Below are positions 20,557-62,862 of a stretch of DNA of 64,000 nt, piece after piece (within the stretch, counting starts at the first letter, position 1; each line of letters starts with the position of its first letter). Below the pieces are notes generated by a model. That model worked only from the letters and a program-made list of their open reading frames with translations, was not told the DNA's origin and did not search any database. The stretch comes from Elusimicrobiota bacterium (lineage in GTDB: Bacteria > Elusimicrobiota > Elusimicrobia > Elusimicrobiales > UBA9959). The stretch spans positions 25,507-89,506 of the forward strand of contig WOVA01000016.1 of assembly GCA_009773155.1 (NCBI GenBank). Direction: 5' to 3'. Position numbers and translations under genes: made by a program.

Positions 20557-21654
20557 ATGAGAAAAAAACGCTCTCTCGGGCTGGAGCTTTCGGCCAGGGG
20601 CTCCCTGGAGGCCACGCTGCGCGCGGCCAGGATGATGGCGGCCGGCGAGGACGAGTTCCTGGCGCTGGAGCGGGCGGTGGAAGAGGACCCTCTTTTTAAA
20701 AAGCTGGTACGCCCGCCGGGCGGCGCGTCGCCGGCCGTGCGGCGCCGCAGGCCGGGCGGGGTGAATTTCGCCTGGAACCGCGCCCTGGGCCAGGACATGC
20801 TCGTCGAACCGGGGGAAGTCCCCGCCGGCGGCATGCTGGAAGGGCGCGAGGCCGCCCTGGCCCTTATAAAACGCATTGGCGCCGGGAATTTCGAGAGGTA
20901 TTTTCTTTCAGACGAGCCTGTACCGGCCGGGCGCAGTGCTTCCGGCACCGACAGCGGCGAAAGCCGCCCTGATCCGTCCGCGGAGGCCGCCGCGGCCTGC
21001 GGGCTCGCCCCGGCGGAGTTCGCCGAAGTCAGGGCTTTCACCGCCTCTTTCCTGGCGGCTCATGAGCGGCTGCAGCTGAAGCCCGTCGACCGCCCTTTCG
21101 CCGCCGTGGCGGCCGTCGCCGCCGGGCCGCGCGGCCCGGAACTTTCCTATCTTTCCTCGCGCTACGCGCGCGGGACCTACGACGTGGACCTGGCCGCCCT
21201 GCGCGGGCTGGGGGCCTCGGGCCTGATCTCCTCCGACGAAAAGCGCCGCCTCCGGCCGCTGCTGGCCGCCCTGCGGTCGCTCAACAGCAAGAAGCGCGGG
21301 CTGACGCTGCTGCTGCCGGCCCTGGCCGAGCGCCAGGCCGATTTCCTGCTGGGCCGCATCCCGTCGCCCAGGCCGCTGTCGATGACGGCCCTGGCCGCCG
21401 ACCTGGGCCTGAGCGCGGGCAGCGTCTCGCGGCTCGCCGCCGGGCGCAGCCTGCTCCTTCCCTCCGGTGAGGAAATAACCATACGCTCCCTGTTCCCGGG
21501 CAAGGGCTCCCGCTCGATTGACAGGATAAGGGATATATTGATACAAAAAGGCGGGGATAAACTGACCGACGACGAGGTCGCCGCCCGGCTGCGCGGGAAA
21601 TACGGGCTCAAACTCTCCCGACGCACGGTCAACCATTACAGGGGACGTATCTGA
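20557..21654 (+). CDS. rpoN: Short, divergent RNA polymerase sigma-54-like factor
   Basis: Region-I-like N-terminus (LGLELS...LEATL...DEFLALERAVEEDPLF). C-terminal HTH (PLSMTALAADLGLSAGSVSRLAAGR) and an RpoN-box-like LSRRTVNHYRGRI. At 365 aa it is shorter than typical RpoN. Confidence 0.68.
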   Translation: MRKKRSLGLELSARGSLEATLRAARMMAAGEDEFLALERAVEEDPLFKKLVRPPGGASPAVRRRRPGGVNFAWNRALGQDMLVEPGEVPAGGMLEGREAALALIKRIGAGNFERYFLSDEPVPAGRSASGTDSGESRPDPSAEAAAACGLAPAEFAEVRAFTASFLAAHERLQLKPVDRPFAAVAAVAAGPRGPELSYLSSRYARGTYDVDLAALRGLGASGLISSDEKRRLRPLLAALRSLNSKKRGLTLLLPALAERQADFLLGRIPSPRPLSMTALAADLGLSAGSVSRLAAGRSLLLPSGEEITIRSLFPGKGSRSIDRIRDILIQKGGDKLTDDEVAARLRGKYGLKLSRRTVNHYRGRI

Positions 21655-22751
21655 AAAAACAGGAATCACAATCGCAAGCGCTGCAGCACAGCCTTTTCCG
21701 GTCGGTCTTCAACGAGTCGACCGAGAGGTTCCTGGTGCTCGACGCCGCCGGCGTCATCCGGCTGGCCAATGACAGCGCCCTGGAGCTGCTCGGCTATAAA
21801 GAAAGCGAAGTGGTCGGCCAGGGCGTCGCGAAGCTGGTGCTGGAGAAGGACGCGGCCGAGCTGGAAGGCTTCCTGAAAGCCGTATCCGAAAGCGGCGAGC
21901 TGCGCAACTATAAATTCTACTTCCTCACCTCGCGCCAGAGCATCATCCGCCTCTTCATCAGCATAAAGGCCCTGAGGGACGAGGACGGGAAGCTCGAGGG
22001 CTTCAGGCTGGCCCTCTCGCTGGTCTATCCCGACGAGTGGGCGGCCCTGCGCGACCCGCATTTTTTCCAGGGCGTCGCCAGGAAGCTCGGCCGCCTGACC
22101 TCCGTGGGCCAGCTCACGTCCATCTTCGCCCATGATATCAAGAACCCGCTGCACGTGATACTTTCCACCTCCGAACTGATGCTCTCCTCCGGCGAGCTGC
22201 CGGCGGAATCCCGCGAGAGCCTGGAACTCATCGAGCGCAACGCCCAGCGCGCCTCGCGCATAGTCAAGACCCTGCTCGATTTTTCGCGCAGCGGCATCTG
22301 CCAGCTGCGCCCCTGCTCGGTTAACGATATCGCCGAGCATTGCATCGGGCTTCTCGCCAGCTCGCTGAAGACCTCCAGGATCTCGGTCAAGAAGGAACTC
22401 GGACAGGCGCCCAAGGTGTTCCTGGACCCGCATTACCTCAACAGCGTGGTCTACAATCTGCTCAACAACGCGGCCGAGGCCCTCGGCCCCGACGGGGGCG
22501 AGATAGTCGTCGCCTCCGGCGAGAACACGCCGGGGGAAGCCTTCCTGCGCATAACGGACAATGGCCGCGGCATGGAGCCCGGCGTCCTCTCGTCGGTATT
22601 TCAGCCCTTTTTCACCACCAAGGAGAACGGCACCGGGCTGGGGCTGTACCTGGCCAGGCAGGTCATGAACGAACACAGCGGCCGCATCACGCTCGACTCC
22701 AGGCCCGGCAAAGGCACGTCGGTGACGCTCTTCTTCACCAAGCTGGCCTGA
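21651..22751 (+). CDS. PAS-domain sensor histidine kinase (start uncertain)
   Basis: PAS (LFRSVFNESTERFLVLDAAGVIRLAN), H-box SIFAHDIKNPL, and ATPase N/G boxes (NLLNNAAEA, DNGRGM, GTGLGL). PAS residues extend upstream of the first GTG (21735). The only in-frame candidates are CTG 21651 and CTG 21681. Confidence 0.85.
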   Translation: MKKQESQSQALQHSLFRSVFNESTERFLVLDAAGVIRLANDSALELLGYKESEVVGQGVAKLVLEKDAAELEGFLKAVSESGELRNYKFYFLTSRQSIIRLFISIKALRDEDGKLEGFRLALSLVYPDEWAALRDPHFFQGVARKLGRLTSVGQLTSIFAHDIKNPLHVILSTSELMLSSGELPAESRESLELIERNAQRASRIVKTLLDFSRSGICQLRPCSVNDIAEHCIGLLASSLKTSRISVKKELGQAPKVFLDPHYLNSVVYNLLNNAAEALGPDGGEIVVASGENTPGEAFLRITDNGRGMEPGVLSSVFQPFFTTKENGTGLGLYLARQVMNEHSGRITLDSRPGKGTSVTLFFTKLA

Positions 22752-22772: not shown

Positions 22773-24141
<1,369 letters not shown>

Positions 24142-24146
<5 letters not shown>

Positions 24147-24202
24147 ATTTTTTTCTACAAAATATTGTAGAATAAAATCTACAATGTGGAATAAAGTCTA
24201 CA
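24142..24202 (+). promoter_or_regulatory. Putative enhancer (UAS): three TGTAGA-N6-TCTACA palindromes
   Basis: TGTAGA 24142 / TCTACA 24154 / TGTAGA 24166 / TCTACA 24178 lie on a 12-bp lattice, plus TGTGGA 24185 / TCTACA 24197. The array sits about 80-140 bp upstream of the sigma-54 promoter and starts at the activator stop codon. Confidence 0.6.
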
Positions 24203-24249: not shown

Positions 24250-24277
24250 ATCCCGTCCGTCAGGCGGGATTTTTTAT
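24250..24277 (+). terminator. Rho-independent terminator after the activator gene
   Basis: The hairpin tcccgtcc-gtca-ggcggga is followed by TTTTTT. Confidence 0.65.
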
Positions 24278-24278
24278 T

Positions 24279-24293
24279 TGGCAACTTTGTTGC
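24279..24293 (+). promoter_or_regulatory. Sigma-54 (-24/-12) promoter
   Basis: TGGCAACTTTGTTGC fits TGGCAC-N5-TTGC with GG and GC correctly spaced. It lies about 75 nt upstream of ATG 24369, which has a GGAGG RBS. Confidence 0.75.
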
Positions 24294-24368: not shown

Positions 24369-25787
24369 ATGAAACGGATCATTAATCTCCTGACGGCCGC
24401 GGCCCTCTCTTCGCTCCTGTCCCTGCCCGCCTACGCCGCCCCGCTGCTGATAAACTACCAGGGCCGGCTGATAGACACCGCCGGGAACCCGCTGATCGTA
24501 ACAAACCAGCCCATAACTTTCAGGATCTACGACGCTCTTACGGGCGGCAATCTCCAATGGACCGAGAACCAGAGCATAACTCCGGACAACGGCATCTTCA
24601 ATGTCTCGCTCGGAAGCGTCAGCTCTCTCCCCGCCCCGGTCTTTTCCTCCGACGACCGGTACCTCGAGGTCCAGATCGGCGCCGACTCCCCGCTTTCGCC
24701 GCGCACCCGGCTACTCTCCGTTCCCTACGCCGTTTACGCCGCCAATATAGGATCTCCTTCCAGTTCCATCAATGTTTCCACTCATATGGTCCTTTCCGGC
24801 GGCCAGCTCCGCTTCGGTAATTTTGCCTCCGCTCCCTCGGTCGCCGTCGGCGCCGGCGCGATGTATTATAACACCACCAATAACCAGCTCTATTACCACA
24901 ACGGCACGGCCTGGACAGCCCTGGCGGCCGGCGGCATCAGCCCGCTGACCGACAACGGTGACGGCACCGTTACCCTAAACGTGCCTGCCAACAGGGTCGG
25001 CCTTGGAAAAGCGCCCGCCGAAAAGTTGGACGTGGCCGGTAATATCAAGGCCGATTACGGCCTTATATCCGCGACCGCCGCGGTCAGCGGCGCGGTCTAT
25101 GTGGGCTCCGGCGCGAACATCAGCACGATAACGCCGACGGGATTCTTCGGCAGCGGCGCGGGGCTGCTTAACGTGCCGGTGGGCGACAATACGGTGACGT
25201 CGGCCAAGATAGTGGACGACAGCATAATGAACGCCGACATCAACGCGTCGGCCGCGATAGCCAAGAGCAAGCTGGCGGCTTTGAATATAGTGAACGCGGA
25301 CGTGGACGCGGCGGCCGCGATAGCCCCGTCGAAGATAGCGGGCACGGCGGCCATACTGGGCGCGAATACGTTTACCGGCGCGCAGACGTACGCCGCCGGT
25401 TCGTCGCTGGCGGCGGCGGCCGCACAGCCTGGCGTGGCGGTGTCGACGGCGGTCTTCATCGGCACGGGCGCGAACATCAGCACGATAACGCCGACGGGAT
25501 TCTTCGGCAATACAATACACGCTTCCAGCGCCACGCTGACGGGTGACGCGGAAGTCCGCGGCTTGATTAAGGCCGGCTCCACCCCGGCGGCCATAACCGA
25601 TGTCTCCGGCAATGTCTTGGCCTCCAAACTGATCGGGGCAATACCACAAGCTGTCACTGTGTTCGTCTCCGCTGATTGTGAGGCTTTAACCCCAGGGACT
25701 GTGGCACAGTTCTGCTATAACAGCACTTCGTTTATTCTTAATGTTTCGACTAGCACGAATCTCGGAGGCTTTGCTCCGTTGCATTAG
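24369..25787 (+). CDS. Secreted fibre/adhesin-like repeat protein (uncharacterised)
   Basis: Signal peptide MKRIINLLTAAALSSLLSLPAYA. The protein is Ala/Gly/Ser/Thr/Asn-rich with no TM. It has the motifs INYQGRL and MYYNTTNNQLYYHNGTAWTAL and the internal repeat G.GANISTITPTGFFG. Confidence 0.7.
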   Translation: MKRIINLLTAAALSSLLSLPAYAAPLLINYQGRLIDTAGNPLIVTNQPITFRIYDALTGGNLQWTENQSITPDNGIFNVSLGSVSSLPAPVFSSDDRYLEVQIGADSPLSPRTRLLSVPYAVYAANIGSPSSSINVSTHMVLSGGQLRFGNFASAPSVAVGAGAMYYNTTNNQLYYHNGTAWTALAAGGISPLTDNGDGTVTLNVPANRVGLGKAPAEKLDVAGNIKADYGLISATAAVSGAVYVGSGANISTITPTGFFGSGAGLLNVPVGDNTVTSAKIVDDSIMNADINASAAIAKSKLAALNIVNADVDAAAAIAPSKIAGTAAILGANTFTGAQTYAAGSSLAAAAAQPGVAVSTAVFIGTGANISTITPTGFFGNTIHASSATLTGDAEVRGLIKAGSTPAAITDVSGNVLASKLIGAIPQAVTVFVSADCEALTPGTVAQFCYNSTSFILNVSTSTNLGGFAPLH

Positions 25788-25819
25788 TGATAGACCTAAG
25801 CATCCCTCGCCGGCTAATT

Positions 25820-28003
25820 ATGGGCTACAAAAAAGGCGGCATGATACTATTGACTTTCCTTGTCGGCGGCTTGTTCGCCGTCCAGGGGGTTTCTTTTGCC
25901 GCTAACACCCTGGAGACGCGGGCGGTCACGGGCGGGCTGGGGATCTCGTCGGGCACGGCGAAGATACTTGAGTCGGTGATAGGCGAGCTCTCCGGGCCGG
26001 CGCCGACGGGGTCCGTGCGCAAGGTCCTCTCGGGTCACGCCCGGACCAGCCACAGCCCGGGCGCGCTCTACGACATCGCGGTGACCACGCAGCCGGTGGA
26101 CGAAGGGCAGGTGCGGATAACCTTCACCACGCCCGGCCGCGCCGGCTTCCGCGGGCAGCTTTCCTTCGTGGAAGTCAAGATAGCCACCTACGCCATCACC
26201 GCGGCTAATTACGAGGCGATAACTTCGTCGCTGACGCTGACGGCGCTGAGCACCGGCACGGCGGGTCTGACCACTTATTATCACCTGGTCCCCGGGCCGA
26301 CCTATTACGCCGCCGGGCGCGCCCGCGACGCGGCGGGCATGAAGAGCCGCCTCTCGCCGACGCCGACGTTCCTGACCTCGGCCATAGCGCCGGCCCCGGT
26401 CACCTCCATTACTATCGTCAACTCAACCTACGGCGCCGTTAATATCACCTGGAACGTGACCGGCGACGACGGTTTGATCGGCGACCTGACCACCGGCTAT
26501 TTCCGCATAGCTTATTCCAGCGTGCCGGCGGAAGCGGCCCTTTTCAGTTCCGCCAATTACACCACCCAGCTTTCCACCAGCGCGCTGGCCGGCTCCACCC
26601 AGTATCACCGGCTCTCCGGCCTGCAGGGTAATGTGACCTATTACGCCGCCGTCTTCATCGGCGACGAGGTGACCGTCTACGGCGGACTCGGGACCATCGC
26701 GCAGGTTGTCACGATGGCTTATCCGCCGATCCAGTCCGGCTTCTCAAATCTTTCCAGCGACGGGTTCACGGTCAGTTATACGGCCAACAACTACCCCGGC
26801 GCGCAGTACTATATCCAGACGTCCAGCGACCCCGCTTTCTCCTATGCCACGAATTCCGGCTGGATCACGACAAGCTCGGCGTCCTTCTCCGGGCTCAACA
26901 CCAACCAGACTTACTATGTGCGCGGCAAGGCGCGCAATTCGCAACTGGTGGAAACCCAGTATGCGGACCTCGGCAGCGTCTCGCTGACACTCAACGTTTC
27001 AAAGCCCAAGCCGCCGCCCCTGAAGGGGGAGGCCTCCGGCTCCACCATAATCCTTTCCTGGGACCAGGTGGTCTACAACATAGCCGGCGGCACTACCACC
27101 ATAGCCGCGTACGACATCTACTACAGCACCGGGGTCAACGGGGCGGAGAATTTCATCGAGGCCGTCTCCAGCTCGGTGTTCACCAGGACTTACACGCCTC
27201 CCGCGGCGCGCTGGTACTATGTGAAGGCGCGCGACCAGTACAGCCTGCGCAGCGATCCGTCCATATGGGTGAAGAGTACGCTCGACGTGGCGCGCGTGGT
27301 GGCCGCCGACCTCCGCGCCGTGGCGGATATGCCGCCGGACGCGGGCTACCAACTCGCCGCCTCCGGCCTTACGCTGCGGATATCCCACCAGAGCCAGTAC
27401 GAGACCGGGCTTGTGCAGGCCTCGTATAAGGTCTCGCTGCTCGACAATAACGGCAACGAGCGCGTGGGCCTGGACCTGCCGTCCGCGGCCGTCGTGACTA
27501 TGCCCACCACCCGGACCGGCGCCGTGACCATAACCGGCTACTCGCCGTCGATCTCCTATTCCGTCTACGATTACGCCGTCTTCTACTACAACGGCGTGGA
27601 GGACGTGAACATCGGCGGCGCGGTGGACCCGAACTCCGGCACCGTCAGCGTCTCCACAAAGAAGACGGGCGTCTTCAAGGTAAAGCAGGTTATAAGGCCT
27701 TCCTCCTTCAGGATAACCCAGACCGTGCCGCGCAAGATCTTCACGCCCAACGGCGACGGGATCTGGGACGAGTTCAACATCGTCTACGACAACCCGGAGG
27801 GGCTCTCCATCTCCGACGCCAAGGTTTATGACCTCTCCGGGGCCGAAGTGGCGTCGCTGCGCGCCGGCACCTATAATACCAGCGCCTCGCTGTCGTGGGA
27901 CGGCCGGCGGAAGGGCGGCGACAAGGCGGCGGCCGGCATCTATGTCTACCAGTTTAAGGCCGGGTCAAAGTACCATAACGGCACGATGGTGCTGGCGCGG
28001 TGA
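25820..28003 (+). CDS. Large secreted FN3/Ig-like repeat protein with T9SS-type-B-like (gliding-motility C-terminal) domain
   Basis: Signal/TM segment MILLTFLVGGLFAVQGVSFA and repeated beta-rich modules (..YY.RGKARN.., WYYVKARD). The C-terminal IFTPNGDGIWDEFNIVY...GIYVYQFKAG resembles the PNGDG.ND C-terminal sorting domain. Start ATG 25820 is preferred over GTG 25787. Confidence 0.75.
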   Translation: MGYKKGGMILLTFLVGGLFAVQGVSFAANTLETRAVTGGLGISSGTAKILESVIGELSGPAPTGSVRKVLSGHARTSHSPGALYDIAVTTQPVDEGQVRITFTTPGRAGFRGQLSFVEVKIATYAITAANYEAITSSLTLTALSTGTAGLTTYYHLVPGPTYYAAGRARDAAGMKSRLSPTPTFLTSAIAPAPVTSITIVNSTYGAVNITWNVTGDDGLIGDLTTGYFRIAYSSVPAEAALFSSANYTTQLSTSALAGSTQYHRLSGLQGNVTYYAAVFIGDEVTVYGGLGTIAQVVTMAYPPIQSGFSNLSSDGFTVSYTANNYPGAQYYIQTSSDPAFSYATNSGWITTSSASFSGLNTNQTYYVRGKARNSQLVETQYADLGSVSLTLNVSKPKPPPLKGEASGSTIILSWDQVVYNIAGGTTTIAAYDIYYSTGVNGAENFIEAVSSSVFTRTYTPPAARWYYVKARDQYSLRSDPSIWVKSTLDVARVVAADLRAVADMPPDAGYQLAASGLTLRISHQSQYETGLVQASYKVSLLDNNGNERVGLDLPSAAVVTMPTTRTGAVTITGYSPSISYSVYDYAVFYYNGVEDVNIGGAVDPNSGTVSVSTKKTGVFKVKQVIRPSSFRITQTVPRKIFTPNGDGIWDEFNIVYDNPEGLSISDAKVYDLSGAEVASLRAGTYNTSASLSWDGRRKGGDKAAAGIYVYQFKAGSKYHNGTMVLAR

Positions 28004-29109
28004 GCGGAGATATTATGGAAAGGGACGAAAATAAAGTTTCTCTCCTCGCGGCCGCGGCGGCGCTGCTCTTTCTCTCCGCCGCCTCAGCGCGCGCCTCGTT
28101 CACCGATTCGGGTTACGCGGCCCGCCAGGCCGCGATGGGCCAGGCTTTCACCGCCATCGCCGACGACTCCGGCTCGGTGCCCGCCAATCCAGCGGGGCTC
28201 GTGAATCTCTCCGGTCCCGAGCTCACCGCCGTCTACGGCAAGCTCTACCAGGGCCTCTCCGACAATTCCGACATCGGCCGCGGCTATTTCGGCTTCGCTT
28301 CTCCGGTGAAGCGCTGGCTGCCCGGCGCCGCGGCTTTCAGCTGGGACGAGACCCGCCTGACGGAAGCCTACGCCGAAACCTCCTTCTCGGTCTCCTACGC
28401 CACCCGCGCCTGGCGCGGCCTGGCGACCGGCCTGACGCTCAAATACCTGCGCAAGGGCTACGAATCCGATTCTTACACGGCGGTTGACCCGCTTTTCAGC
28501 GGCGGCTACTCCAAGGCCGCCCTGGGCGTAGACCTCGGCGCGCATTACCGGCTCTCGCCGAAATATACGTTCGGCCTGCTGCTGCGCAATATCAACCGCC
28601 CCGACCTGGGCATAGGCGGGAAGGACGCGCTGCCGGCGCAGGGCAGGCTCGGCGCGGCCTACTGGCTGCGCAACGGCGTGGTCAGCCTGGACGCCGGCTT
28701 CGGCGAGGATTTCGAGCTGGCCCTGGGCGCCGAATACGTCCTTCACCACAAGTACCCGCTGCGCCTGGGGCTCAACGTAAACGACGACGCGCGCCGCAAC
28801 GTGAGCTTCGGCCTCGGCGCCAGGATGGCCTCTTTCGGCCTCGATTATTCCTTCACCCTGCCGATAGGCGGCGTGCAGGACATCTCGGGCTCGCACCTGC
28901 TGGCTTTCTCCATGCGCTTCGGCCGGGCCGACGCCGGCTTCTACGCGGCGCAGGCCGATCCCGCCGCCGCGGCCCAGCTGCGGGACGCGCTCGCGGCCCT
29001 CAAGGCCGCCGAGCAGCGCGAGCGCGATCGCGAGCGGGAGATCCTGGACCTGGAGCGCCGGCTGCTGGAGAAGCAGCGCGCTGTCGGCGGGCCGGCGCCC
29101 TCCCGATGA
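28000..29109 (+). CDS. Outer-membrane beta-barrel protein (PorV/PorQ- or PorP/SprF-like), C-terminal coiled coil truncated by a frame change
   Basis: Signal peptide LLFLSAASARA. The motif AAMGQAFTAIADDSGSVPANPAGL resembles that family. Alternating beta-strand pattern ending ...GSHLLAFSMRF, then a coiled coil (EQRERDREREILDLERRLLEKQ), with the stop at 29107-29109. Confidence 0.7.
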   Translation: MSGDIMERDENKVSLLAAAAALLFLSAASARASFTDSGYAARQAAMGQAFTAIADDSGSVPANPAGLVNLSGPELTAVYGKLYQGLSDNSDIGRGYFGFASPVKRWLPGAAAFSWDETRLTEAYAETSFSVSYATRAWRGLATGLTLKYLRKGYESDSYTAVDPLFSGGYSKAALGVDLGAHYRLSPKYTFGLLLRNINRPDLGIGGKDALPAQGRLGAAYWLRNGVVSLDAGFGEDFELALGAEYVLHHKYPLRLGLNVNDDARRNVSFGLGARMASFGLDYSFTLPIGGVQDISGSHLLAFSMRFGRADAGFYAAQADPAAAAQLRDALAALKAAEQRERDREREILDLERRLLEKQRAVGGPAPSR

Positions 29110-29485
29110 ACCCAAAGTTATTATCCCGTCGACCGAAGTCCCCGGCGAATCCATACGCGCGCTCGAGGAGACCCTGAACGCGCTCAAGGGCGAACTGGAG
29201 AAGGCCAGGCTCGAGAGCGAATCCTTCAAGACCCGCGTCAGCGGCCTCGAGGAGCGGCTTAAGACCGCGCCCAGGCCCTCGGCGCCTGCCGTCAGGCCCG
29301 CGGCCCCGGCCCCCGCGCCGGCGGCCAGGCGTTCCTACGAGGCGCAGAAAGGCGATACGCTGCAGAGCGTCGCCGAGAAAGTCTACGGCGACGCCTCGCG
29401 CTGGCCGGAGATCTACAGGGCCAACGCCGCGTCGCTCGGCCGCGGCGGAGAAGTGAAGCCCGGCCAGGTCCTGGTCATCCCCTGA
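29108..29485 (+). CDS. Coiled-coil + LysM domain reading frame without a start codon (probable frameshifted 3-prime part of the preceding gene)
   Basis: The +1 frame is open from 28868 to TGA 29483-29485 and encodes ...IRALEETLNALKGELEKARLESESFKTRVSGLEERL...YEAQKGDTLQSVAEKVYGDASRWPEIYRANAASLGRGGEVKPGQVLVIP (LysM). No in-frame ATG, GTG or TTG occurs before the domain. Confidence 0.6.
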   Translation, partial: EPKVIIPSTEVPGESIRALEETLNALKGELEKARLESESFKTRVSGLEERLKTAPRPSAPAVRPAAPAPAPAARRSYEAQKGDTLQSVAEKVYGDASRWPEIYRANAASLGRGGEVKPGQVLVIP

Positions 29486-29619
29486 CCGGGACCGAGGCCG
29501 GCGCTTTATCAGGGATTTCCCTTTTTAGTAACATTTGCGAAACACGCCGGGTGTAAATTATAGGCGCCGGTACTCCGCCCCGCCGGCGGCAAGGACGGGG
29601 CAGGTGCGGAAGAAAGCAA

Positions 29620-29642
29620 GGACACCATGCGGAATGGTGTCC
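29620..29642. repeat. GGACACC-family palindrome copy upstream of the giant coiled-coil gene
   Basis: ggacaccat-gcgga-atggtgtcc, about 40 nt before ATG 29682. Confidence 0.75.
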
Positions 29643-29681
29643 CCACCCGGCGGAACGATGTTTTTTTTACGGACTTTAACT

Positions 29682-32600
29682 ATGAACGACAAATGGGACG
29701 AATCTTCGCTTAACGAGCAGGCGATAACCGACCTGGAGACGGCCAAGCTCGCGCTGCGCTGGGCGCTGGACAAGCTCCGCGCCAACCAGGAAGAGTCGCT
29801 CAAATCCCGCCAGACGCTGCAGGAGAAAGCCTCGCAGGTCTCCTTCCTCGAGAACCAGGTCAAGGCCAAGAACGCCGAGATGGAGCGGCAGCAGCGCGCG
29901 CAGGAGGAGGAGATCAAGTCCCGCCAGGAGAGCCTGGAGTACCAGTTCAGGTCCCGCCTGGAGCGCCTGACCGAGCGCGAGAAGGAACTCGAGGATAACG
30001 CCGCGAAGCTGGAGGGCTCCTTCAAGGCCCGCGAGCAGAAGCTCACCGACGACTTCCAGAAAAAATCCGAGGAACTGCGCGGCCGCTGGGGCCAGGTGGA
30101 GGCCGAGATCTGGCAGCTGCGCCAGGAGCAGCTGGCCAAGCAGCAGGAGTTCGAGAAGCTTTACGCCGAGCGCCTCTCGGCCGAGCAGAAGCGCGCCCGG
30201 GAAGAGTCGGAGAACTCCCGCGCGGAGATGGAGAGAAATTACGGGTCCCGCGTGCAGGAGCTGGAGAAGCGCGAGCACACGCTGGGCGAGGAGCTCAAGA
30301 AACAGGAAGCGGTGATGAAGTGGGCCCGCGACAGCTGGCAGAAGGACGCCGACGAGCGGGAGAAGAAGCTCAAGGTCCGCGAGCTGGAGATAGAGAAGAA
30401 ACTGCTCGAGAAAGAGCAGGAGATAGACGATTACAAGGTCAAACTGGGCCTGCTCAACAAACAGCTGACCGACCTGCCCGAGGCCGTGCGCAAGCGCGAC
30501 GAGGAACTGGAGCGCTACCGCGGCGCGCTGGACAGCCTGGAAGGCGTGATCAGGACCCTGGAAGGGGAGAAGAGAGCCCTCGCCCAGGATTCCGATTCCA
30601 GGCAGTCCCGCCTGGCCGAGGCGCTCGAGGCCGAGAAGGCCCGTTTCAAGGACCTCGAGAACGAGATCCCCAGGCGCCTCAAGATAGCCATAGAGCACGA
30701 GCGCGCCCGGCTGCAGGAGAAGGTCTCCGAGGTGGAGAAGAACTTCGGCCTGGACCTGCGCAAGAAGCAGGAAGAGGCGGACTACCTCGAGCGCAATCTC
30801 AAAACTTTCGAGGAGACCATAAAGACCCTGCAGGCCGAGCGCGAAGGGTTCGCGCAGAAGACCGAGCAGCTGCAGACCCAGCTCAATATCCGCTCCGAGG
30901 AGACCTCCTTCCGCGAGCGGCAGCTGCAGTCGGAGTACGAGGTCCGCCTCAGGGTGGAGCTCGAGAAGCAGAGCCGCGGCCTGCGCTCGGAGATAGAGAC
31001 CGCGCAGCGCATCTACGAGGACAATCTGCGCCTCAAGATCGAGGAGATCGCCCACCTGCGCAAGGAGATGGAGACCCTGGCCGGCGAGAAGTCCGACCTG
31101 TCCTCCTCCTCCTCCGAGCTGCGCCGCCAGGTGGAGGCCCAGAAGGATAAGTACGAGCGCGACCTGGCCTCGACCAGGGCCGCCCTCAAGGAGAGCCACG
31201 ACGCCGAGCTGGGCCGCCGCATGGAGGAGGAAACGGCGAAGCACGAGCAGGCCCGCGCGGCGCTGCAGAAGGATTTTTCCGCCCAGCTGGAGGGCCTCAA
31301 CCTTATAGTCGCCGAGCGCGAGGCGGAGCTCAACCGGTTCAAGAACGAGGTCCAGCGGATGTCCGCCGAAAAGGCCGAGGCTATTGCGCGGGAGAAGGAC
31401 AAGGCGCGCCAGGACCTGGAGCTGCAGGCGAAGGCGTTCGCCGAGACCGAGAAGATATACCAGGAGAAGCTGCAGCAGTCCGCGCGCAATATCGAGGCCG
31501 TCCGCGTCGAGAAGGAAGAGACCATACTGCGCGAGAAGGACCGCCTCGAGCGTATCTACGCCGAGCGCGAGAAGGATTACGAGGATCAGCTGGCCCGCAG
31601 GGACCAGGAGGTCGTGCGGCTGCGCGAGGACCTGCTAAAGTCGGCCCATGAGCGGGAGACGGTTCTTCGCGAGGTTTCGGCGGAGCGCGACGCGCTGCGC
31701 CAGAAGCTCAGGGAAGCGCATGACGCCGCCGCCCGTGCGGAAGCGCTCAAAGAACTGGAACTGGAGCGCGCCCGCCAGGCCGAGAAGGACAAGTCGGCCG
31801 ACATCCTCGACAAGCGCGACAAGGAGCTGGCCGCGCTGGCAAGGACCAAGGACGAGCAGGACGCCGCCTACCGCCGCTCGCTGGAGGATTTCCGGGCCAG
31901 GCTCTCCGAAGCCGTGGGCAAGATGGAAGAGCTTAAGGCCGTGGCCGAGGAACGCCAGACCCGCGTCTCCGCGCTGCAGGTGGAGATCTCCGAGGCCAGG
32001 CGCCAGCATAACGACGAGCATATGGCGGTGTCCGGCCGGCTGGCCGACAGGGAAAAGCAGCTCAAGTCCCTGCGGATGGACTATGATTCGCTCAAGGCCA
32101 ATTCGGCGGCCGTCACCCAGGAGTCGCAGAAGCAGATTGGCGAGGCGCTGATGCGTCTCAAGGCCGCCGAAGAGCACCGCGGCGCTTCCGAGAAGGCTCT
32201 TTCCGAAAGCCGGCGCGAGATAGATATGCGCAGGGTAGAGCTTTCCAAGAAAGAGGACGAACTGCTAAAGCTGCACTCCGACCTGGAGAGCTCGCGCAAC
32301 TCCGCAGCCCGGACAGTGGAGGAATCGCGCGGCCGCGAAACTTCCCTCAAGAGCCGGCTGGAGGTGCTCGAGTCCGAGCTGGCCGGCCGCTCTTCGCTGG
32401 CGTCGGACCTTACCGCCGAGCTGAAAGCGCGCAACGCCGAGCTTTCAAAGGCGGGGGAAGAGAAGTCCCGCCTGGAGCAGGAGCTCAACGTCAGGCTCTC
32501 GGAATTCAAGCAGCAGCTTGAGTCGGAGCGCAAGGAGTTCCGCCTGTCCTACGAGCGGCTCAACCGCGAATTCGCCGACCGGGAAAAGGCCCTGATCGGG

Positions 32601-33413
32601 GAGGTCAACGCCCTCAGAGGCCAGTTGACTTCCGGCGAGTCACTGGCCCAGGACCTGAAGTCCCGGCTCGAGAGCGCGGAGGCGGCCGGGCCCGGGATGA
32701 AGGCGCGCATAGACGAACTGCAGAAGAAGATCAGGAACATGGAAGAGGCGTCCTCGGGCCTCGCCGAGAGCCTGCTGGCGGCCAAAGAGAGCGCCTCCGC
32801 CGCCGCGGCCCGGATAGAGAAGCTCTCCGCCCAACTGGAGGACGAGAAGAAGCGCCGCTCCTCGCTCGAAGCCGCCAACGAGACGCTCTCCTCGGAACTG
32901 CGCAGGAAACTCGAGGAGTTTTCGGCGGCCTCCTCGTCCGTCAAGGACCTTTCCGGCCGCCTGGCCCGGGCGCAGGAACTATGTGAGACGGAAAAGCGAA
33001 AGCGGGAGGAGACGGAAGTCTATTCCCAGACCTCCGCTTCCGCCCTCCAGGAGAAGGAAGTGGAACTGTCCGACCTGAAGTTCTCCATGAAGGAGCTGTC
33101 TTCCAGGGTCAATAAACTCCAGTCCCTCTACGAGGCCGAGAAGCTCAAGCGCGAGGAGACCGAGGTTTATTCCCAGACCTCGGCCAGCGCCCTGCGCGAG
33201 AAGGAAGACGAGCTCAAGGGCCTCGGGAAGCGCTGCGCGCGGCTGGAATCCGAACTCAACGCCTCCAGGAAAGAGGCGGGTTCCGCGTCGGTCGAGGCGG
33301 CCAGGCTGGCCGGCGAGATCGAGGAGCTCCGGCGCGTCAAGGAAGAGTACGAAAAGAGCCGCAGGCTGGCGGAAAAGCTCAAAGATAAGCTCAAGCTATG
33401 GAAGAAGGAATGA
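29682..33413 (+). CDS. Giant coiled-coil-rich protein (about 1240 aa), no enzymatic domain recognised
   Basis: Almost entirely E/K/R/Q/L/A heptad-like sequence with no TM or signal peptide. Start set at MNDKWDES (29682; ATG 29658 is also possible). The ORF-track TTG 29535 start would read through a palindrome repeat. A C-terminal duplicated block EK.KREETEVYSQTSASAL.EKE.EL is present. Confidence 0.8.
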   Translation: MNDKWDESSLNEQAITDLETAKLALRWALDKLRANQEESLKSRQTLQEKASQVSFLENQVKAKNAEMERQQRAQEEEIKSRQESLEYQFRSRLERLTEREKELEDNAAKLEGSFKAREQKLTDDFQKKSEELRGRWGQVEAEIWQLRQEQLAKQQEFEKLYAERLSAEQKRAREESENSRAEMERNYGSRVQELEKREHTLGEELKKQEAVMKWARDSWQKDADEREKKLKVRELEIEKKLLEKEQEIDDYKVKLGLLNKQLTDLPEAVRKRDEELERYRGALDSLEGVIRTLEGEKRALAQDSDSRQSRLAEALEAEKARFKDLENEIPRRLKIAIEHERARLQEKVSEVEKNFGLDLRKKQEEADYLERNLKTFEETIKTLQAEREGFAQKTEQLQTQLNIRSEETSFRERQLQSEYEVRLRVELEKQSRGLRSEIETAQRIYEDNLRLKIEEIAHLRKEMETLAGEKSDLSSSSSELRRQVEAQKDKYERDLASTRAALKESHDAELGRRMEEETAKHEQARAALQKDFSAQLEGLNLIVAEREAELNRFKNEVQRMSAEKAEAIAREKDKARQDLELQAKAFAETEKIYQEKLQQSARNIEAVRVEKEETILREKDRLERIYAEREKDYEDQLARRDQEVVRLREDLLKSAHERETVLREVSAERDALRQKLREAHDAAARAEALKELELERARQAEKDKSADILDKRDKELAALARTKDEQDAAYRRSLEDFRARLSEAVGKMEELKAVAEERQTRVSALQVEISEARRQHNDEHMAVSGRLADREKQLKSLRMDYDSLKANSAAVTQESQKQIGEALMRLKAAEEHRGASEKALSESRREIDMRRVELSKKEDELLKLHSDLESSRNSAARTVEESRGRETSLKSRLEVLESELAGRSSLASDLTAELKARNAELSKAGEEKSRLEQELNVRLSEFKQQLESERKEFRLSYERLNREFADREKALIGEVNALRGQLTSGESLAQDLKSRLESAEAAGPGMKARIDELQKKIRNMEEASSGLAESLLAAKESASAAAARIEKLSAQLEDEKKRRSSLEAANETLSSELRRKLEEFSAASSSVKDLSGRLARAQELCETEKRKREETEVYSQTSASALQEKEVELSDLKFSMKELSSRVNKLQSLYEAEKLKREETEVYSQTSASALREKEDELKGLGKRCARLESELNASRKEAGSASVEAARLAGEIEELRRVKEEYEKSRRLAEKLKDKLKLWKKE

Positions 33414-36049
33414 CCTCCTCCTCCGGACTGGAAGGCCTGGACGCCGAAATAGACCGCCTCCTGGAGGAAGTGCAATCCAAGGAGAAAGTTTATTCCGCGC
33501 GCGTAGCGCTGCTTGAAGGCGAGCTCAAGCGCCGCGACGGGGAGGTGCACACCCTCTCGGCCAGGCTGGCCGAGTCCGAGAAGACGTGGTTCGCGCGGGA
33601 GCGCGAGCTCAAGGAGAAAGGCCGCTCGCTGAAGGAGGTCCTTGCCGAGCGCGACGCGGCCGCCGCCGACCTTACCCTCAAGGCGGAGGAACTGACGAAG
33701 AAGATCGCCTCCCTCGAAAAGAGCCTGGAGAAGGAACTCACCGCCAACAGGGAGAAGGAAGTCTACATACAGAGCGCCAAGTCGGCGGTAAAGGGGCGCG
33801 ACGCCGAGGTGGAGAAGACCTGGCGTATGCTGGAGGAGGCCCGCTCCGAGATAGCCTCCTGGAAGGCGCAGACCTCCGAGCGCGACTCGCGCCTGGAGGC
33901 CGCCGCCGCCGGGAACCAGGCCCTCGCGCTGGAGATACAGAAGCTCAACAATTCGCTGCAGCAGGCGGCGCAGGGGTTCCGGCACAAGCTGGACATGGTA
34001 AGGAAGGAAGCCGAGTCCGCCGTGCTGGAGAAGTCCTCCGCGCTGGTCCGCGTCAGCGCGGCCGAGGAGGCCATGAATGAGCGGGCCGCCTCCATGGAGA
34101 AGCTGGCCGTCAGGGCCAGGCAGCTGGAAGAGACCCTCGCCGTGCGCGAATCCCGGCTGGCCGAGCTGGAGGACAGGCTTAAATTTTTCGAAACGGTCCC
34201 GCAGTCGGCGGAGAAGGCTTCCGCCGAGACCGCGGCGCTGCGCCGCAAGGAGCGTCTGGTCTCCGAACTGACGTCACGGGTGGCCTCGCTGGAGAAGGAC
34301 CTGACTTCCGTGGAGGAGGACCGGGCGCGGCTGGCCGAGCGCATGCACGTCTCCGAGGCGGAACTGCGCGCCGCCCGCGAGGAGCTGGCCGGCTCGACCG
34401 CCAGGTTAAGGGCGCTGGAGTCGGAGCGCGACTCGTTCAAGAAACTTTCGGCGGAGGCCCAGGAGATGGCCGCCGCCATCTCGGAGAAGTCCGGGCGCGA
34501 GGATACCGAGAAACTCTCTAAAATAGGCGAGAGCCTGCGCCAGGAGCACGTCCGCTACAGTCAGGCGCTCTCGCGGGCCGAGGAACTCGCCACCCGCTAC
34601 GCCGCGCTCGAGGCCGATCACGAGGCGCTGAAAAAACGCCACGACGATTCCGTGGCGGAGAAGGCGGTGGAGATAGAGAAGCTGCGCTCCGACCTGGCCC
34701 AGGCCGAAGCGGAAGGCGCCAGGCGCCTGTCCGAACTGGCCGAGACCGACCGCCGCCGCTACCACGAGCTCGCGGGCGAGATGCAGCAGCTCAGCTCCCG
34801 CCTCGCGGAGAAGGAGATGGAGCTGGAGGCCGCCCGCTCCGGCCACGAGGCCATAAAGGCCGAATGCGCCCGCCTGCGCGAGCACGAGCGCGAACTGCAT
34901 AAGAATTACGAGCGCCAGCTCAAGGACGACAACCGCCAGCTGGAGGAGGCCCGCGCGGCCGCCGCCAGGCTGGAGGGGGAAATGCACGCCATCCATTCCC
35001 GGGAGTCCGCCCTGAAGGCGGAGGCCGCGGCGCTGAAAGCCGAGATAGAGGTCTCCAAAAAAGAGAAGAACACGGCCGCTTCTTCCGGCAAAAAGCTCAG
35101 GGAGCTGGAGTCACGGCTGGAGGAAAAGAACGACGAACTGTCCGAGGCGCGCAAGAGCCTCTCCAAGATCTCGACGGAGAAGGCGCGCTGGCACGAGCGG
35201 GAGCGCAAGCTGGCGGAGGACGGCCGCGGCGGCAAGGCCAAAGCCGAACTGGCCGACGCCGAGCGCCGCCTGGCCGCCAAGGAGCAGGAACTGTCCGGGG
35301 TCTCCGACAGGCTGGAGGCCGCCGCCGCCGAGATCTCCGGCCTGCGCGCCGCGAGGGAGAGCTTCAGGAGCAGGCCCGCCCCGGGCGCCTCGACGGACCT
35401 GCAGGAGCTGGTCGCCGGCATCGCGCACCAGATCTCCAATTCCGTCAGCATAATACGCAGCCACGCCGAGTACTGCCTGGAGGCGCCTAAAGAGTCAGAT
35501 CTCAAAGAGCCGCTGGGCGCGATAGTGCGCAGCATAGTCACCCTGCAGAAGCGCATCGAGGAAATAGCCGACTTCTCCAGGCCCGTTCTGCTGCAGCGCA
35601 AGACCGTCGGGCTCGGCGACATAGCCAGGGAGGCCCTGGCCTTCGCCGCCAACGCGCAGGGGCAGGTCCCTTTCCAGTCCAGGGTCTCCGCCCCTAAAGA
35701 CCTTCCTCCGCTGCGCGTGGACCAGGTCCGCCTGCAGGAGGCCCTGGAGCATGTCCTGACCAACGCCGCCGAGTCGCTCGGCAAGGACGGGCGGATAGTG
35801 GTGGACATACGCCGTTCGTCGGGCGGCCAGGTCATAAAAGTGTCCGACACGGGACAGGGAGTAGAACCCAAGAACCTGCCGGCGGTCTTCGAACCTTTCT
35901 TTTCCACCAGGCCAGGCAAGCTGGGTCTGGGGCTGGCGATAGCCAAGAATATCATCAAGTCGCACGGCGGAGAGATCAAGCTCTCCAGCGAGTTCGGCCG
36001 CGGAACGCAGGCCGAGATCTTCCTCCCGGACGCTCCGGAAGAGGACTAA
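33398..36049 (+). CDS. Histidine kinase with about 620-aa N-terminal coiled coil
   Basis: Overlaps the previous gene (ATGA at 33410-33413). Long coiled coil, then H-box LVAGIAHQISNSVSII and an HATPase (LTNAAESL, SDTGQGV, GKLGLGLAIAKNII.HGG). No TM segment seen. Confidence 0.85.
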   Translation: MEEGMTSSSGLEGLDAEIDRLLEEVQSKEKVYSARVALLEGELKRRDGEVHTLSARLAESEKTWFARERELKEKGRSLKEVLAERDAAAADLTLKAEELTKKIASLEKSLEKELTANREKEVYIQSAKSAVKGRDAEVEKTWRMLEEARSEIASWKAQTSERDSRLEAAAAGNQALALEIQKLNNSLQQAAQGFRHKLDMVRKEAESAVLEKSSALVRVSAAEEAMNERAASMEKLAVRARQLEETLAVRESRLAELEDRLKFFETVPQSAEKASAETAALRRKERLVSELTSRVASLEKDLTSVEEDRARLAERMHVSEAELRAAREELAGSTARLRALESERDSFKKLSAEAQEMAAAISEKSGREDTEKLSKIGESLRQEHVRYSQALSRAEELATRYAALEADHEALKKRHDDSVAEKAVEIEKLRSDLAQAEAEGARRLSELAETDRRRYHELAGEMQQLSSRLAEKEMELEAARSGHEAIKAECARLREHERELHKNYERQLKDDNRQLEEARAAAARLEGEMHAIHSRESALKAEAAALKAEIEVSKKEKNTAASSGKKLRELESRLEEKNDELSEARKSLSKISTEKARWHERERKLAEDGRGGKAKAELADAERRLAAKEQELSGVSDRLEAAAAEISGLRAARESFRSRPAPGASTDLQELVAGIAHQISNSVSIIRSHAEYCLEAPKESDLKEPLGAIVRSIVTLQKRIEEIADFSRPVLLQRKTVGLGDIAREALAFAANAQGQVPFQSRVSAPKDLPPLRVDQVRLQEALEHVLTNAAESLGKDGRIVVDIRRSSGGQVIKVSDTGQGVEPKNLPAVFEPFFSTRPGKLGLGLAIAKNIIKSHGGEIKLSSEFGRGTQAEIFLPDAPEED

Positions 36050-36063
36050 GTCCCGAGGAAAAC

Positions 36064-62844: not shown

Positions 62845-62862
62845 ATTAGTCCTTTCCTTTTC

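Follow-up and report, generated by a model that had tools for sequence, protein, structure and literature searches.

An FN3-array protein and the outer-membrane barrel encoded directly after it probably form a cognate surface-anchoring pair, in which the C-terminal domain (CTD) of the former would be held by the latter and the barrel would in turn be tethered to peptidoglycan, the two belonging to a sigma-54-controlled Elusimicrobia operon that would build a surface fibre or adhesin. The genes lie in a window (the whole stretch of DNA that was analysed, 64,000 nucleotides) whose source is a high-GC Elusimicrobia MAG, in keeping with the impression of the sequence-only reading that the surrounding genome is high in GC and not Bacteroidota-like. 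That reading had also singled out the FN3 protein with its T9SS-like tail and the barrel that follows it, an observation that holds with corrections. Three co-oriented ORFs (24369-25787, 25787/25817-28003 and 28000-29109, all on the + strand) do occupy the span 24369-29109 assigned to it, but the end at 29109 is not that of the intact gene: an 8-nt deletion near 29095-29105, in a GCGCCC repeat, interrupts the barrel gene in this assembly and is the cause of the stop at that position, and the intact gene ends at 29486 (Table 1). The 492-aa product in another assembly (P0002, 100% identical) continues to that point, taking in a coiled coil and a LysM domain. The GTGA overlap that had been described between the cargo and barrel genes arose because the longest ORF was taken; database gene calls put the barrel start at an ATG (28015) preceded by GGAG and 11 nt after the cargo stop. 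Within the same span lies a fibre-like gene that had not been mentioned, and where many pilin-like features had been described, a single window ORF fits a strict type IV pilin motif.

Table 1. Positions in the window of the operon, its regulatory genes and sites, and its downstream neighbours.
Feature	Position	Strand	Basis or remark
Short sigma-54-like protein	20557..21654	+	Only the DNA-binding domain recognized (Pfam Sigma54_DBD, 43 bits)
PAS histidine kinase	21735..22751	+	Pfam PAS, HisKA, HATPase_c; syntenic in L001 and L003
NtrC-type sigma-54 activator response regulator	22773..24146	+	Pfam Response_reg, Sigma54_activat (228 bits), HTH_8; syntenic in L001 and L003
Three tandem 18-nt palindromes, TGTAGA-N6-TCTACA	24142..24202	.	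Repeat families D1, D2, I1-I3
Sigma-54 (-24/-12) promoter-like element, TGGCAACTTTGTTGC	24279..24293	+	75 bp upstream of the fibre ATG
Phage-tail-fibre-like protein, 472 aa, Sec signal	24369..25787	+	First structural gene of the operon
Cargo, 728 aa, tandem FN3/Ig-like sandwiches, Sec signal	25817..28003	+	Translation
CTD, sorting-type domain	27734..28000	+	Reaches the last cargo residue
PorV/PorQ-family barrel with periplasmic coiled coil and LysM	28015..29486	+	Intact gene; interrupted here
LysM peptidoglycan-binding domain	29337..29483	+	In the window, not in the reading frame of the barrel ORF
Giant (~1250-aa) cytoplasmic coiled-coil protein	29535..33413	+	E/K/R/L-rich translation; conserved downstream neighbour
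Large histidine kinase	33398-36049	+	Pfam HisKA, HATPase_c; syntenic in L001 and L003
Response regulator	36064-37236	+	Pfam Response_reg; syntenic in L001 and L003

The signal peptides of the three operon proteins were read by eye (MGYKKGGMILLTFLVGGLFAVQGVSFA/AN at the N-terminus of the cargo) and their domain content was observed directly. Approximately 30 cargo orthologues occur in Elusimicrobia (48-86% identity), and the AF2 model of the cargo consists of beta-sandwich domains (pLDDT 66). Compared as a whole by Foldseek, the model gave generic FN3 arrays as top matches, which are uninformative on the CTD, and among PDB sequences the cargo family profile had no more than weak FN3 matches (E >= 0.019). 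The tail reads IFTPNGDGIWDEFNIVY...GIYVYQFKAG...GTMVLAR, with the domain ending on the final residue. It passes the Pfam gathering score of 27 for both CHU_C (PF13585, 32.8 bits, residues 650-725 of the 738-aa ORF) and FlgD_ig (PF13860, 29.2 bits) and gives 19.2 bits with NCBIfam TIGR04131, under the curated cut-off of 35. Nearly all of the cargo orthologues (30 of 31) match TIGR04131 weakly (best E = 4.7e-7; the one score displayed is below the cut-off), and one of them (P0097) has been named by NCBI 'gliding motility-associated C-terminal domain-containing protein'. The type-B-like character proposed for the tail is thus upheld by CHU_C, though TIGR04131 falls short. An identity as nothing but FlgD-Ig was rejected, CHU_C being the best Pfam match and above its gathering score, and so was the possibility that the cargo is a flagellar hook-capping FlgD, as only the Ig-like domain matches and NF005176 gives 17 bits against 230. 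'Type B' cannot serve as an exclusive label, given that the CTD family has matches to FlgD_ig as well and, at a weak level, to type A tails. No other segment of the cargo is as well conserved as the CTD (81% mean pairwise identity versus 65-69% elsewhere), and the domain stands at the C-terminus in 45 of 48 related matches; CHU_C gives 28-48 bits for barrel-adjacent tails from Spirochaetia, Poribacteria and other Elusimicrobiota.

The best NCBIfam family for the barrel is PorV/PorQ (PorV_fam, NF033709), whose cut-off of 90 is narrowly missed by both the window ORF (86.6 bits) and intact P0002 (85.1 bits). When the barrel family profile was compared with the PDB, PorV of Flavobacterium johnsoniae came first (6h3i_F, E = 1.5e-14) and the next barrel was TodX (E = 0.0098), so that membership of an unrelated porin family was not what was found. 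The AF2 model (pLDDT 79) has 14 strands, an N-terminal hatch carrying the family's invariant N-P motif, two long helices and the LysM domain, and superposes on PorV with an rmsd of 4.4-4.6 Å (TM 0.61-0.64), the best rmsd among the Foldseek matches named. The sequence-only reading had called the protein PorV/PorP-like, and of this the PorV half is retained and the PorP half is not: the PorP/SprF models (TIGR03519, PF11751) gave no match to the window barrel at E <= 1. Its interpretation is accordingly supported in part, as regards both homologies and the cargo/barrel pairing, and not as regards a PorP/SprF type for the barrel. The gene stands 11 nt 3' of its cargo, yet is of PorV/PorQ type; some Elusimicrobia paralogues match TIGR03519 weakly (33-54 bits versus 90.55), and there is a precomputed PF11751 match for one orthologue (P0021). 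Weak matches of the barrel family to UPF0164 were also seen. A candidate identity as TraF was rejected (Pfam TraF_2, 20.6 bits and sub-threshold, compared with 86.6 bits for PorV_fam).

It is also conceivable, if unlikely, that barrel and CTD do not recognize each other at all, the barrel being a FadL-type importer or an OmpA-like tether between outer membrane and peptidoglycan that is simply encoded in one operon with an adhesin ending in a generic FlgD-Ig-like sandwich. The fold-level likeness to FadL is real: by Foldseek FadL and PorV are equally good matches (1.7e-11 and 2.4e-11), the N-P motif of the hatch is typical of the FadL family, and the tail does pass the FlgD_ig threshold. The UPF0164 proteins of Treponema pallidum (TP0548, TP0859 and TP0865) likewise have a 14-stranded barrel and a hatch, and these FadL-like barrels, which carry a novel periplasmic alpha-helical C-terminal extension and have helical/TPR extensions in the periplasm, are regarded as transporters (PMC8407342). 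Unlike the barrel here they are read as small-molecule importers, and neither a CTD partner gene nor a LysM domain is described for them in that study. Against an importer or tether of this kind, the profiles favour PorV far over TodX/FadL (E about 0.01 or worse for the latter), and Pfam Toluene_X (FadL/TodX, PF03349) gives only 14.4 bits, under its gathering score of 29.7. Furthermore the passengers encoded ahead of these barrels vary completely, whereas the CTD at their barrel-adjacent end is nearly constant.

That last point comes from a survey of 82 loci found via relatives of the barrel (1.17 Mb, 3254 ORF tails). A CTD was found on 80 of the 3254 tails, and 66 of these 80 lie immediately upstream of a barrel gene and co-oriented with it, which is beyond chance; counted by locus, a CTD-ending ORF stands directly 5' of the barrel in 59 of 82. 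The expectation that the cargo would be encoded beside a barrel is therefore borne out by a strongly conserved pairing, and the order cargo then barrel is kept in all orthologous loci of Elusimicrobiales. Among the phyla that bear the pair are Elusimicrobiota, Spirochaetota, Poribacteria and Margulisiibacteriota, as well as FCB phyla. The passengers range from 140 to 3,200 aa and include FN3, CarboxypepD_reg and beta-propeller proteins, and the barrel's upstream neighbour almost always ends in a CTD at its very last residues; with variable passengers and a constant CTD, it is the CTD that appears to be the feature for which adjacency has been selected. A second pair precedes the window start by approximately 3.6-7.9 kb (L085:1-4301), in the same or a near-identical genome, and its barrel (L085:3372-4301) passes the PorV_fam cut-off with 143.4 bits and scores 119 bits with PorQ; three other loci (L014, L030 and L053) hold two or three pairs each. 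The identity matrices of barrels and CTDs are correlated (r = 0.63, a value reached by none of 5000 permutations), a correlation confounded by shared phylogeny and pair duplication, and within genomes the barrel and CTD paralogues co-diverge. Nothing of use was learned from the genes around P0073, a distant 'PorV/PorQ family protein' from Elusimicrobia.

The C-terminal end of the barrel, predicted to be periplasmic, is its LysM domain, which on P0002 scores 22.6 bits in Pfam (gathering score 20.9). In the window a custom LysM HMM matches the ORF at 28868-29482 (E = 1.4e-25), and the family profile matches Kbp in the PDB (7pvc_A, E = 1.8e-7). The LysM-barrel fusion recurs in about 60 Elusimicrobia proteins, other barrels of the family have TPR tails, and in Poribacteria a separate gene for LysM plus coiled coil is found directly 3' of the barrel gene.

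Taken with the gene order, these domains suggest how the anchoring pair might work. The three Sec-exported products would be the fibre-like protein, the 728-aa FN3-array protein and the 14-stranded PorV/PorQ-family barrel. The barrel would sit in the outer membrane with its coiled coil and LysM domain reaching into the periplasm and binding peptidoglycan, a topology predicted from the even number of strands and from what LysM domains do. The last 90 or so residues of the FN3 protein, a CHU_C/FlgD-Ig-type beta-sandwich, would then dock on their own barrel and so retain the protein, which is assumed to be surface-exposed, at the cell surface. This putative docking, for which the grounds are homology, the strict adjacency of the genes, the strong conservation of the CTD and co-divergence, is modelled on type B cargo with its cognate PorP/SprF and on PorU/PorZ with PorV/PorQ. 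In T9SS the barrels of the PorV-PorU and PorQ-PorZ attachment complexes (PDB 6h3i, 8gl6) hold proteins by their uncleaved CTDs, and no relative of solved structure is closer to the barrel here than PorV. Bacteroidota have, however, a single PorV that shuttles many type A cargoes and is not encoded beside them, in contrast to the one adjacent barrel for each cargo seen here.

The closest type B precedents are SprB-SprF and Fjoh_3952-Fjoh_3951 of F. johnsoniae and PG1035-PorP of Porphyromonas gingivalis. As in those systems, the cargo combines a Sec signal with a CHU_C-type domain at its very C-terminal end, the gene that comes next on the same strand encodes an outer-membrane barrel dedicated to it, several cargo/barrel pairs can occur in one genome, and the passengers are adhesin-like repeat proteins. 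The operon differs from them in that the barrel is of the PorV/PorQ subfamily, without the TIGR03519 or PF11751 matches that would mark PorP/SprF, so that the known precedent makes use of another barrel subfamily; in that the CTD lies under the TIGR04131 cut-off; and in that the host belongs to Elusimicrobiota, outside Bacteroidota and the FCB group. To our knowledge neither SprA nor GldKLMN has been found in that phylum. Type B cargo genes have genes of porP/sprF type directly 3' of them, and secretion of the cargo depends on the latter (PMC12618676), and PorE-PorP-PG1035 and SprF-SprB have been isolated as complexes (PMC9143113). The first of these complexes offers a likeness in the form of a three-part chain running from a surface CTD protein through a barrel to a peptidoglycan-binding module, and the barrel-LysM fusion may do in one chain the job of the peptidoglycan-binding PorP-PorE complex of Porphyromonas. 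PorE of P. gingivalis has TPR, as do the tails of some barrels of the family described here, but its binder is an OmpA_C-type domain on a separate lipoprotein, whereas here the barrel itself carries, on a coiled-coil stalk, a LysM domain as binder (encoded instead by the next gene in Poribacteria).

Since each cargo has its own barrel and pairs occur in phyla without reported T9SS, it might be supposed that export is autonomous and of two-partner style, the PorV-like barrel (perhaps with BAM) being the cargo's route without any SprA-type translocon. We regard this as rather improbable, since on the model a hatch-filled 14-stranded barrel would be too narrow for folded FN3 arrays and moving cargoes as long as some 3,000 aa would be mechanically demanding, and since we know of no protein of the FadL/PorV family that translocates polypeptides. 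Slightly less probable still is the opposite possibility, namely that we are dealing with ordinary T9SS cargo and its shuttle, the full and possibly divergent core (SprA/Sov, GldKLMN/PorKLMN) being encoded elsewhere in the genome. The sequence-only reading had noted no T9SS core genes in view, and Pfam scans of the larger ORFs, covering most of the window, also gave none, nor did any come to light in about 8 kb beyond it; the ORFs scanned across the window are mostly housekeeping genes. The portion of the genome covered amounts to only about 72 kb (the window plus L085), and T9SS core genes are normally scattered and would not be expected beside cargo genes, both of which leave room for such a core, as does the existence of similar pairs in FCB phyla with reported or suspected T9SS, for example Cloacimonadota. 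Where core genes were sought beside the barrels in loci from FCB phyla, ComEA-like, transporter, helicase and LysM proteins were found instead. What argues against ordinary cargo, besides the scans of the window, is that among 2,484 complete genomes TXSScan detected T9SS in Bacteroidetes alone (PMC4793230), that in 2024 T9SS genes were stated to be absent outside FCB phyla (PMC11285876), and that the papers examined on Elusimicrobia, like those on spirochaetes, appear to draw no link to T9SS. As the literature reports no T9SS outside Bacteroidota/FCB phyla, core-independent function of the anchoring pair is plausible, though not proved.

Expression of the pair would be governed by the genes that precede it. 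The sigma-54-like gene is the first of the conserved cluster and has the same position in two orthologous loci (L001 and L003). The promoter-like element TGGCAACTTTGTTGC is the top window match to TGGCAC-N5-TTGCW (one mismatch, tied with one other site) and the sole + strand TGGCA-N6-TTGC in the window. It is conserved in the three orthologous loci for which upstream sequence was available (L001, L003 and L011), in each of which TGGCAAAGTCGTTGC is the only such promoter match, placed about 70 bp ahead of the first structural gene in L001 and L003. The TGTAGA-N6-TCTACA palindromes precede the -24/-12 element by 77-137 bp and are candidate enhancer (UAS) sites to which the NtrC-type activator may bind. 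Motifs and conserved synteny therefore suggest that the operon is transcribed from a sigma-54 promoter preceded by the three palindromes, and that the adjacent PAS kinase and NtrC-type activator would switch this promoter on. The fibre-like protein encoded first scores 40 bits with NCBIfam Bdello_MAT_N (below the cut-off of 60) and matches the fibre of cyanophage P-SCSP1u (8i4m_e, E = 7.4e-9 by phmmer), and its gene has a GC content of 57.5% compared with about 65% in the flanks. In L001 and L003 the fibre slot is taken by a variable gene or by two such genes, none assigned strongly to a Pfam family and one of them matching PTL_trimer faintly. Downstream neighbours are also conserved: the giant coiled-coil protein, which had no Pfam match, has counterparts of 1167 aa and 1216 aa at the same position in L001 and L003, and the kinase and regulator that follow it (33398..37236) are kept as well. 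The sigma-54 promoter and palindromes, the operon opening with a fibre-like gene, the cross-phylum pairs and the second pair are new here.

In the T9SS field CTD signals and PorV/PorP-type barrels are seen as confined to Bacteroidota, or at most to FCB; here both parts form a tight and often multicopy gene pair in phyla without reported T9SS, with the peptidoglycan-binding module fused to the barrel or encoded next to it. It is possible, though we put this forward tentatively and as rather doubtful, that pairs of CTD cargo and PorV-like barrel constitute a self-contained display/secretion module that operates without SprA/GldKLMN, is widespread in non-FCB diderms (Elusimicrobiota, Spirochaetota, Poribacteria, Margulisiibacteriota and FCPU426), and represents an older stage that supplied the Bacteroidota T9SS with its shuttle and attachment parts. 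If SprA and GldKLMN are absent, this would be a simpler and possibly ancestral way of sorting and anchoring large surface proteins, and a minimal system in which recognition of a CTD by its barrel could be studied; should there be a divergent core, T9SS-like secretion would prove to extend considerably further than is known. Either way, a CTD followed by a barrel gene would provide a rule for annotating the giant surface proteins, thousands of them, that are listed as 'hypothetical' in candidate phyla.

The span has three co-oriented reading frames (472, 738/728 and 369 aa), of which the latter two, the cargo and barrel described in the sequence-only reading, were confirmed, with corrections to the gene boundaries. 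Database matches show the source to be an Elusimicrobia MAG, one of them (P0001, 'FD154_1249 [Elusimicrobia bacterium]') with 100% identity. A 492-aa protein from an independent assembly (P0002) is 100% identical across the entire barrel ORF and extends beyond its stop codon. When compared with P0002, the DNA proved to lack 8 nt within a GCGCCC (Ala-Pro) repeat of the barrel gene, after which the downstream frame is open and identical to P0002 up to 29486; the real barrel gene is therefore longer than the ORF (see table), the frameshift separating a coiled-coil/LysM tail from the barrel in the window assembly. As the independent assembly carries the intact protein at 100% identity, the deletion probably reflects either a fault of the assembly or a variant of very recent origin. 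The GTGA overlap described between cargo and barrel genes proved to be a by-product of choosing the longest ORF, because database gene calls start the barrel at ATG 28015, preceded by GGAG and 11 nt past the cargo stop.

Coordinates of the features discussed (window positions unless a locus is named)
Feature	Position	Strand	Remarks
Sigma-54-like protein	20557-21654		365 aa; DNA-binding domain alone recognised; first cluster gene in L001 and L003
Palindromes and -24/-12 promoter	24142-24293
Fibre gene	24369-25787	+	472 aa
Cargo gene	25787/25817-28003	+	738/728 aa
Conserved cargo segment	25901-26062	+	residues 29-82
Cargo C-terminal domain (CTD)	27734-28000	+	last ~90 residues
Barrel ORF as assembled	28000-29109	+	369 aa
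Barrel gene, corrected	28015-29486	+	492 aa in P0002
8-nt deletion	near 29095-29105		within 29080-29110
Coiled-coil protein	29535-33413		~1250 aa
Type IV pilin-motif ORF	37312-37755	-
PilT/T2SSE-type ATPase	41314-42402	+
Sigma-54-like motifs	51267-51282, 51392-51407	+	TGGCAA-N5-TTGG; 2 mismatches each
Serpin	61603-62874	-	Pfam Serpin 390 bits
Second cargo/barrel pair	L085:1-4301		GCA_009773265.1
Poribacteria LysM/coiled-coil genes	L061:10946-11818, L081:8505-9407
818-aa protein genes	L074:10805-13258, L056:8350-10803		WOR-3 MAG and unclassified MAG

The 728-aa cargo ends exactly as had been quoted, and the view that its tail is homologous to type IX sorting domains was right: the tail scores 32.8 bits against Pfam CHU_C ('Type IX secretion signal domain') and 29.2 bits against FlgD_ig (gathering score 27 in both cases), and 19.2 bits against the NCBIfam type B model TIGR04131, below its cut-off of 35. 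There is a weak Pfam fn3 match besides, and in the predicted structure (pLDDT 66) beta-sandwiches follow one another in a row, FN3 arrays being the structural neighbours. Among orthologues no other part of the cargo is as conserved as the CTD (81% vs 65-69% identity). Residues 29-82, just past the signal peptide, are strongly conserved (E32, T33, G39, H73 and S77-G81 are invariant) yet disordered in the AlphaFold prediction; a partner, for instance the product of the upstream fibre gene, may dock there.

For the barrel ORF the best NCBIfam family is PorV/PorQ (NF033709, 86.6 bits vs a cut-off of 90), with weak matches to the PorV, PorV2 and PorQ equivalogs behind it, and Pfam gave only sub-threshold matches to TraF_2, UPF0164 and Toluene_X. 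An AlphaFold2 model of the intact protein built with 42 homologues (mean pLDDT 79) has an N-terminal hatch with an invariant N-P motif (N58 and P59), 14 beta-strands, two helices of ~40 residues and a LysM fold. The intact product thus has a coiled coil behind the barrel and LysM at its C-terminus; the LysM domain scores 22.6 bits in Pfam (threshold 20.9) and is matched by the PDB LysM protein Kbp (1.8e-7). Foldseek against the PDB returned FadL (1.7e-11) and Flavobacterium johnsoniae PorV (6h3i_F, 2.4e-11, also 8gl6_F), PorV giving the best superposition of these (rmsd 4.4-4.6 Å, TM 0.61-0.64). The main functional rival is that the barrel is a small-molecule importer, a view that rests on the FadL-like proteins of Treponema pallidum, whose periplasmic helical extensions parallel the tail of the barrel (PMC8407342). 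By sequence profile against the PDB PorV is clearly first (E = 1.5e-14), TodX, TbuX and FadL reaching 0.01 or worse, and in this respect the earlier assignment to a PorV-like family stands. As the strand count is even, the C-terminus would be expected in the periplasm, which would put the coiled coil and LysM domain within reach of peptidoglycan. Most of ~60 Elusimicrobia homologues (~50% identity, 400-500 aa) have LysM, TraF_2 or both, and TPR tails occur on other members of the family. In two Poribacteria loci a separate LysM-plus-coiled-coil gene lies directly 3' of the PorV-like barrel, so that what is fused in Elusimicrobiales is divided between two genes there.

Searched with the barrel family, a set with a single genome for each GTDB species gave 80 loci, from Elusimicrobiota, Spirochaetota, FCPU426, Poribacteria, Margulisiibacteriota, Firestonebacteria, Wallbacteria, Eisenbacteria, Cloacimonadota, Marinimicrobia, Zixiibacteriota, Latescibacterota, WOR-3 and other groups. 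When HMMs of the Elusimicrobia CTD and barrel were run on all six-frame ORFs of the barrel loci, the CTD matched 48 ORFs, at the extreme C-terminus in 45 of them, and 40 lay directly 5' of a same-strand barrel; many seeming exceptions carry diverged 'PNPF...WDG...G.Y' tails. An iterated profile found the CTD in 80 of 3254 ORF tails, 66 of them directly upstream of a barrel, and the pair in 59/82 loci (by taxon label, Elusimicrobiota 22/24, Spirochaetota 5/7, FCPU426 4/6, Poribacteria 3/4, Marinimicrobia 3/3, Cloacimonadota 3/3, Zixiibacteriota 2/2, and 1/1 each for Margulisiibacteriota, Eisenbacteria, Latescibacterota and WOR-3). Neither the tail nor its position varies, despite wholly dissimilar passengers of ~140 to 3,200 aa (FN3, CarboxypepD_reg, beta-propellers). 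Tails of Elusimicrobiota, Spirochaetia and Poribacteria exceed the CHU_C threshold (28-48 bits) and those of FCB-type phyla are closer to FlgD_ig or type A. PorV/PorQ was the best family for all barrels tested; most fall below its cut-off, the Zixiibacteriota barrel passes (161 bits), and a few Elusimicrobia paralogues also match PorP/SprF weakly. Two MAGs encode, directly 3' of a PorV-like barrel, an 818-aa protein whose N-terminal region is of the ComEA-like helix-hairpin-helix type.

Several pairs can occur in one genome. In GCA_009773265.1, which is the source genome or one near-identical to it, a second pair lies ~3.6-7.9 kb upstream of window position 1: a 3006-aa CarboxypepD_reg-repeat cargo that has a PNPF/FlgD_ig-type tail and, after it, a 309-aa barrel that passes the PorV_fam cut-off (143.4 bits; PorQ 119 bits), and other loci have two or three pairs. 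For 56 pairs taken from beyond the Elusimicrobiales orthologue group, the identity matrix of the barrels correlates with that of the CTDs at r = 0.63 (reached in 0/5000 permutations), a figure inflated by shared ancestry; three pairs within a single genome (L053) co-diverge. To judge from these sequence comparisons, co-divergence fits cognate partners that would have duplicated as units.

The gene order of the window is kept in two long-contig Elusimicrobiales assemblies (L001 and L003): the sigma-54-like protein, a PAS kinase and an NtrC-type activator, then two genes without a strong Pfam family (one faint PTL_trimer match), the CHU_C protein and the barrel-LysM gene, and finally a ~1200-aa protein without a Pfam match, a large kinase, a response regulator and pilin genes. 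The first protein is perhaps a sigma-54 paralogue that has been truncated or has specialised. In Elusimicrobiales the gene directly 3' of the barrel always encodes the ~1250-aa protein, which is cytoplasmic, E/K/R/L-rich and almost wholly coiled coil, with no Pfam match, and the large histidine kinase and response regulator come next. A -24/-12 element, TGGCAACTTTGTTGC (TGGCA-N6-TTGC), precedes the fibre gene by 75 bp, and three tandem TGTAGA-N6-TCTACA palindromes lie 77-137 bp upstream of the element. The near-identical TGGCAAAGTCGTTGC is the sole plus-strand match in each of three orthologous loci (L001, L003 and L011), and in L001 and L003 is ~70 bp 5' of the first structural gene. We infer that the operon is under sigma-54-dependent control by the adjacent two-component system. 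Two further sigma-54-like motifs in a lower-GC stretch may be chance matches. The 472-aa fibre has a Sec signal, an N-terminal domain resembling that of the 'mosaic adhesive trimer' fibres of Bdellovibrio (40 bits against a cut-off of 60) and a repeat block (INASAAIAKSKLAALNIVNADV) shared near-exactly with cyanophage tail fibre 8i4m_e (7.4e-9); its gene has a GC content of 57.5% vs ~65% in the surroundings. As different genes occupy this slot in related loci, the fibre is suggested to be a swappable receptor-binding module.

The surrounding genome had been described as rich in pilin-like features; the strict type IV pilin N-terminal motif (KGFTLIELLVV) is matched by only one window ORF, whose place directly after the response regulator of the cluster is the same in L001 and L003. 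A PilT/T2SSE-type ATPase gene lies directly 3' of ftsA and ftsZ, and a full-length bacterial serpin is encoded further on. When the larger ORFs from most of the window and from ~8 kb beyond it were scanned with Pfam, they proved to be mostly housekeeping genes, with no T9SS core gene among them.

Type B cargo genes of Flavobacterium commonly have a porP/sprF-like gene behind them, which encodes a protein that the cargo needs and that is specific to it (PMC12618676), and SprB is bound by SprF (PMC9143113). A complex of PorE, PorP and the type B cargo PG1035 of Porphyromonas gingivalis has also been isolated (PMC9143113). PorE has an OmpA_C-like domain and binds peptidoglycan in vitro. By analogy the same logic of CTD protein, dedicated barrel and wall anchor would apply here, although the barrel is of PorV/PorQ type, the wall binder is a LysM domain fused to the barrel or encoded beside it, and the host phylum lies outside the FCB group. 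T9SS has been stated to be exclusive to Bacteroidota, or at most FCB phyla (PMC12618676, PMC11285876), and a TXSScan survey of 2,484 complete genomes detected none elsewhere (PMC4793230). Four papers were found that mention Elusimicrobia as well as type IX secretion (T9SS), and these do not appear to connect the two. The NCBI pipeline names some family members 'PorV/PorQ family protein' or 'gliding motility-associated C-terminal domain-containing protein', and thus the CTD and PorV/PorQ homologies are already in databases, but uninterpreted. It is plausible, as had been proposed, that the pair works outside a canonical T9SS. That it forms a module independent of any T9SS core, perhaps one from which part of the T9SS descends, we put forward as possible but less likely than not; with somewhat better than even confidence we favour a sigma-54-regulated, peptidoglycan-tethered pair, in which the promoter and adjacent two-component system would control the operon and the barrel would hold the CTD protein, assumed to be exposed, at the cell surface.
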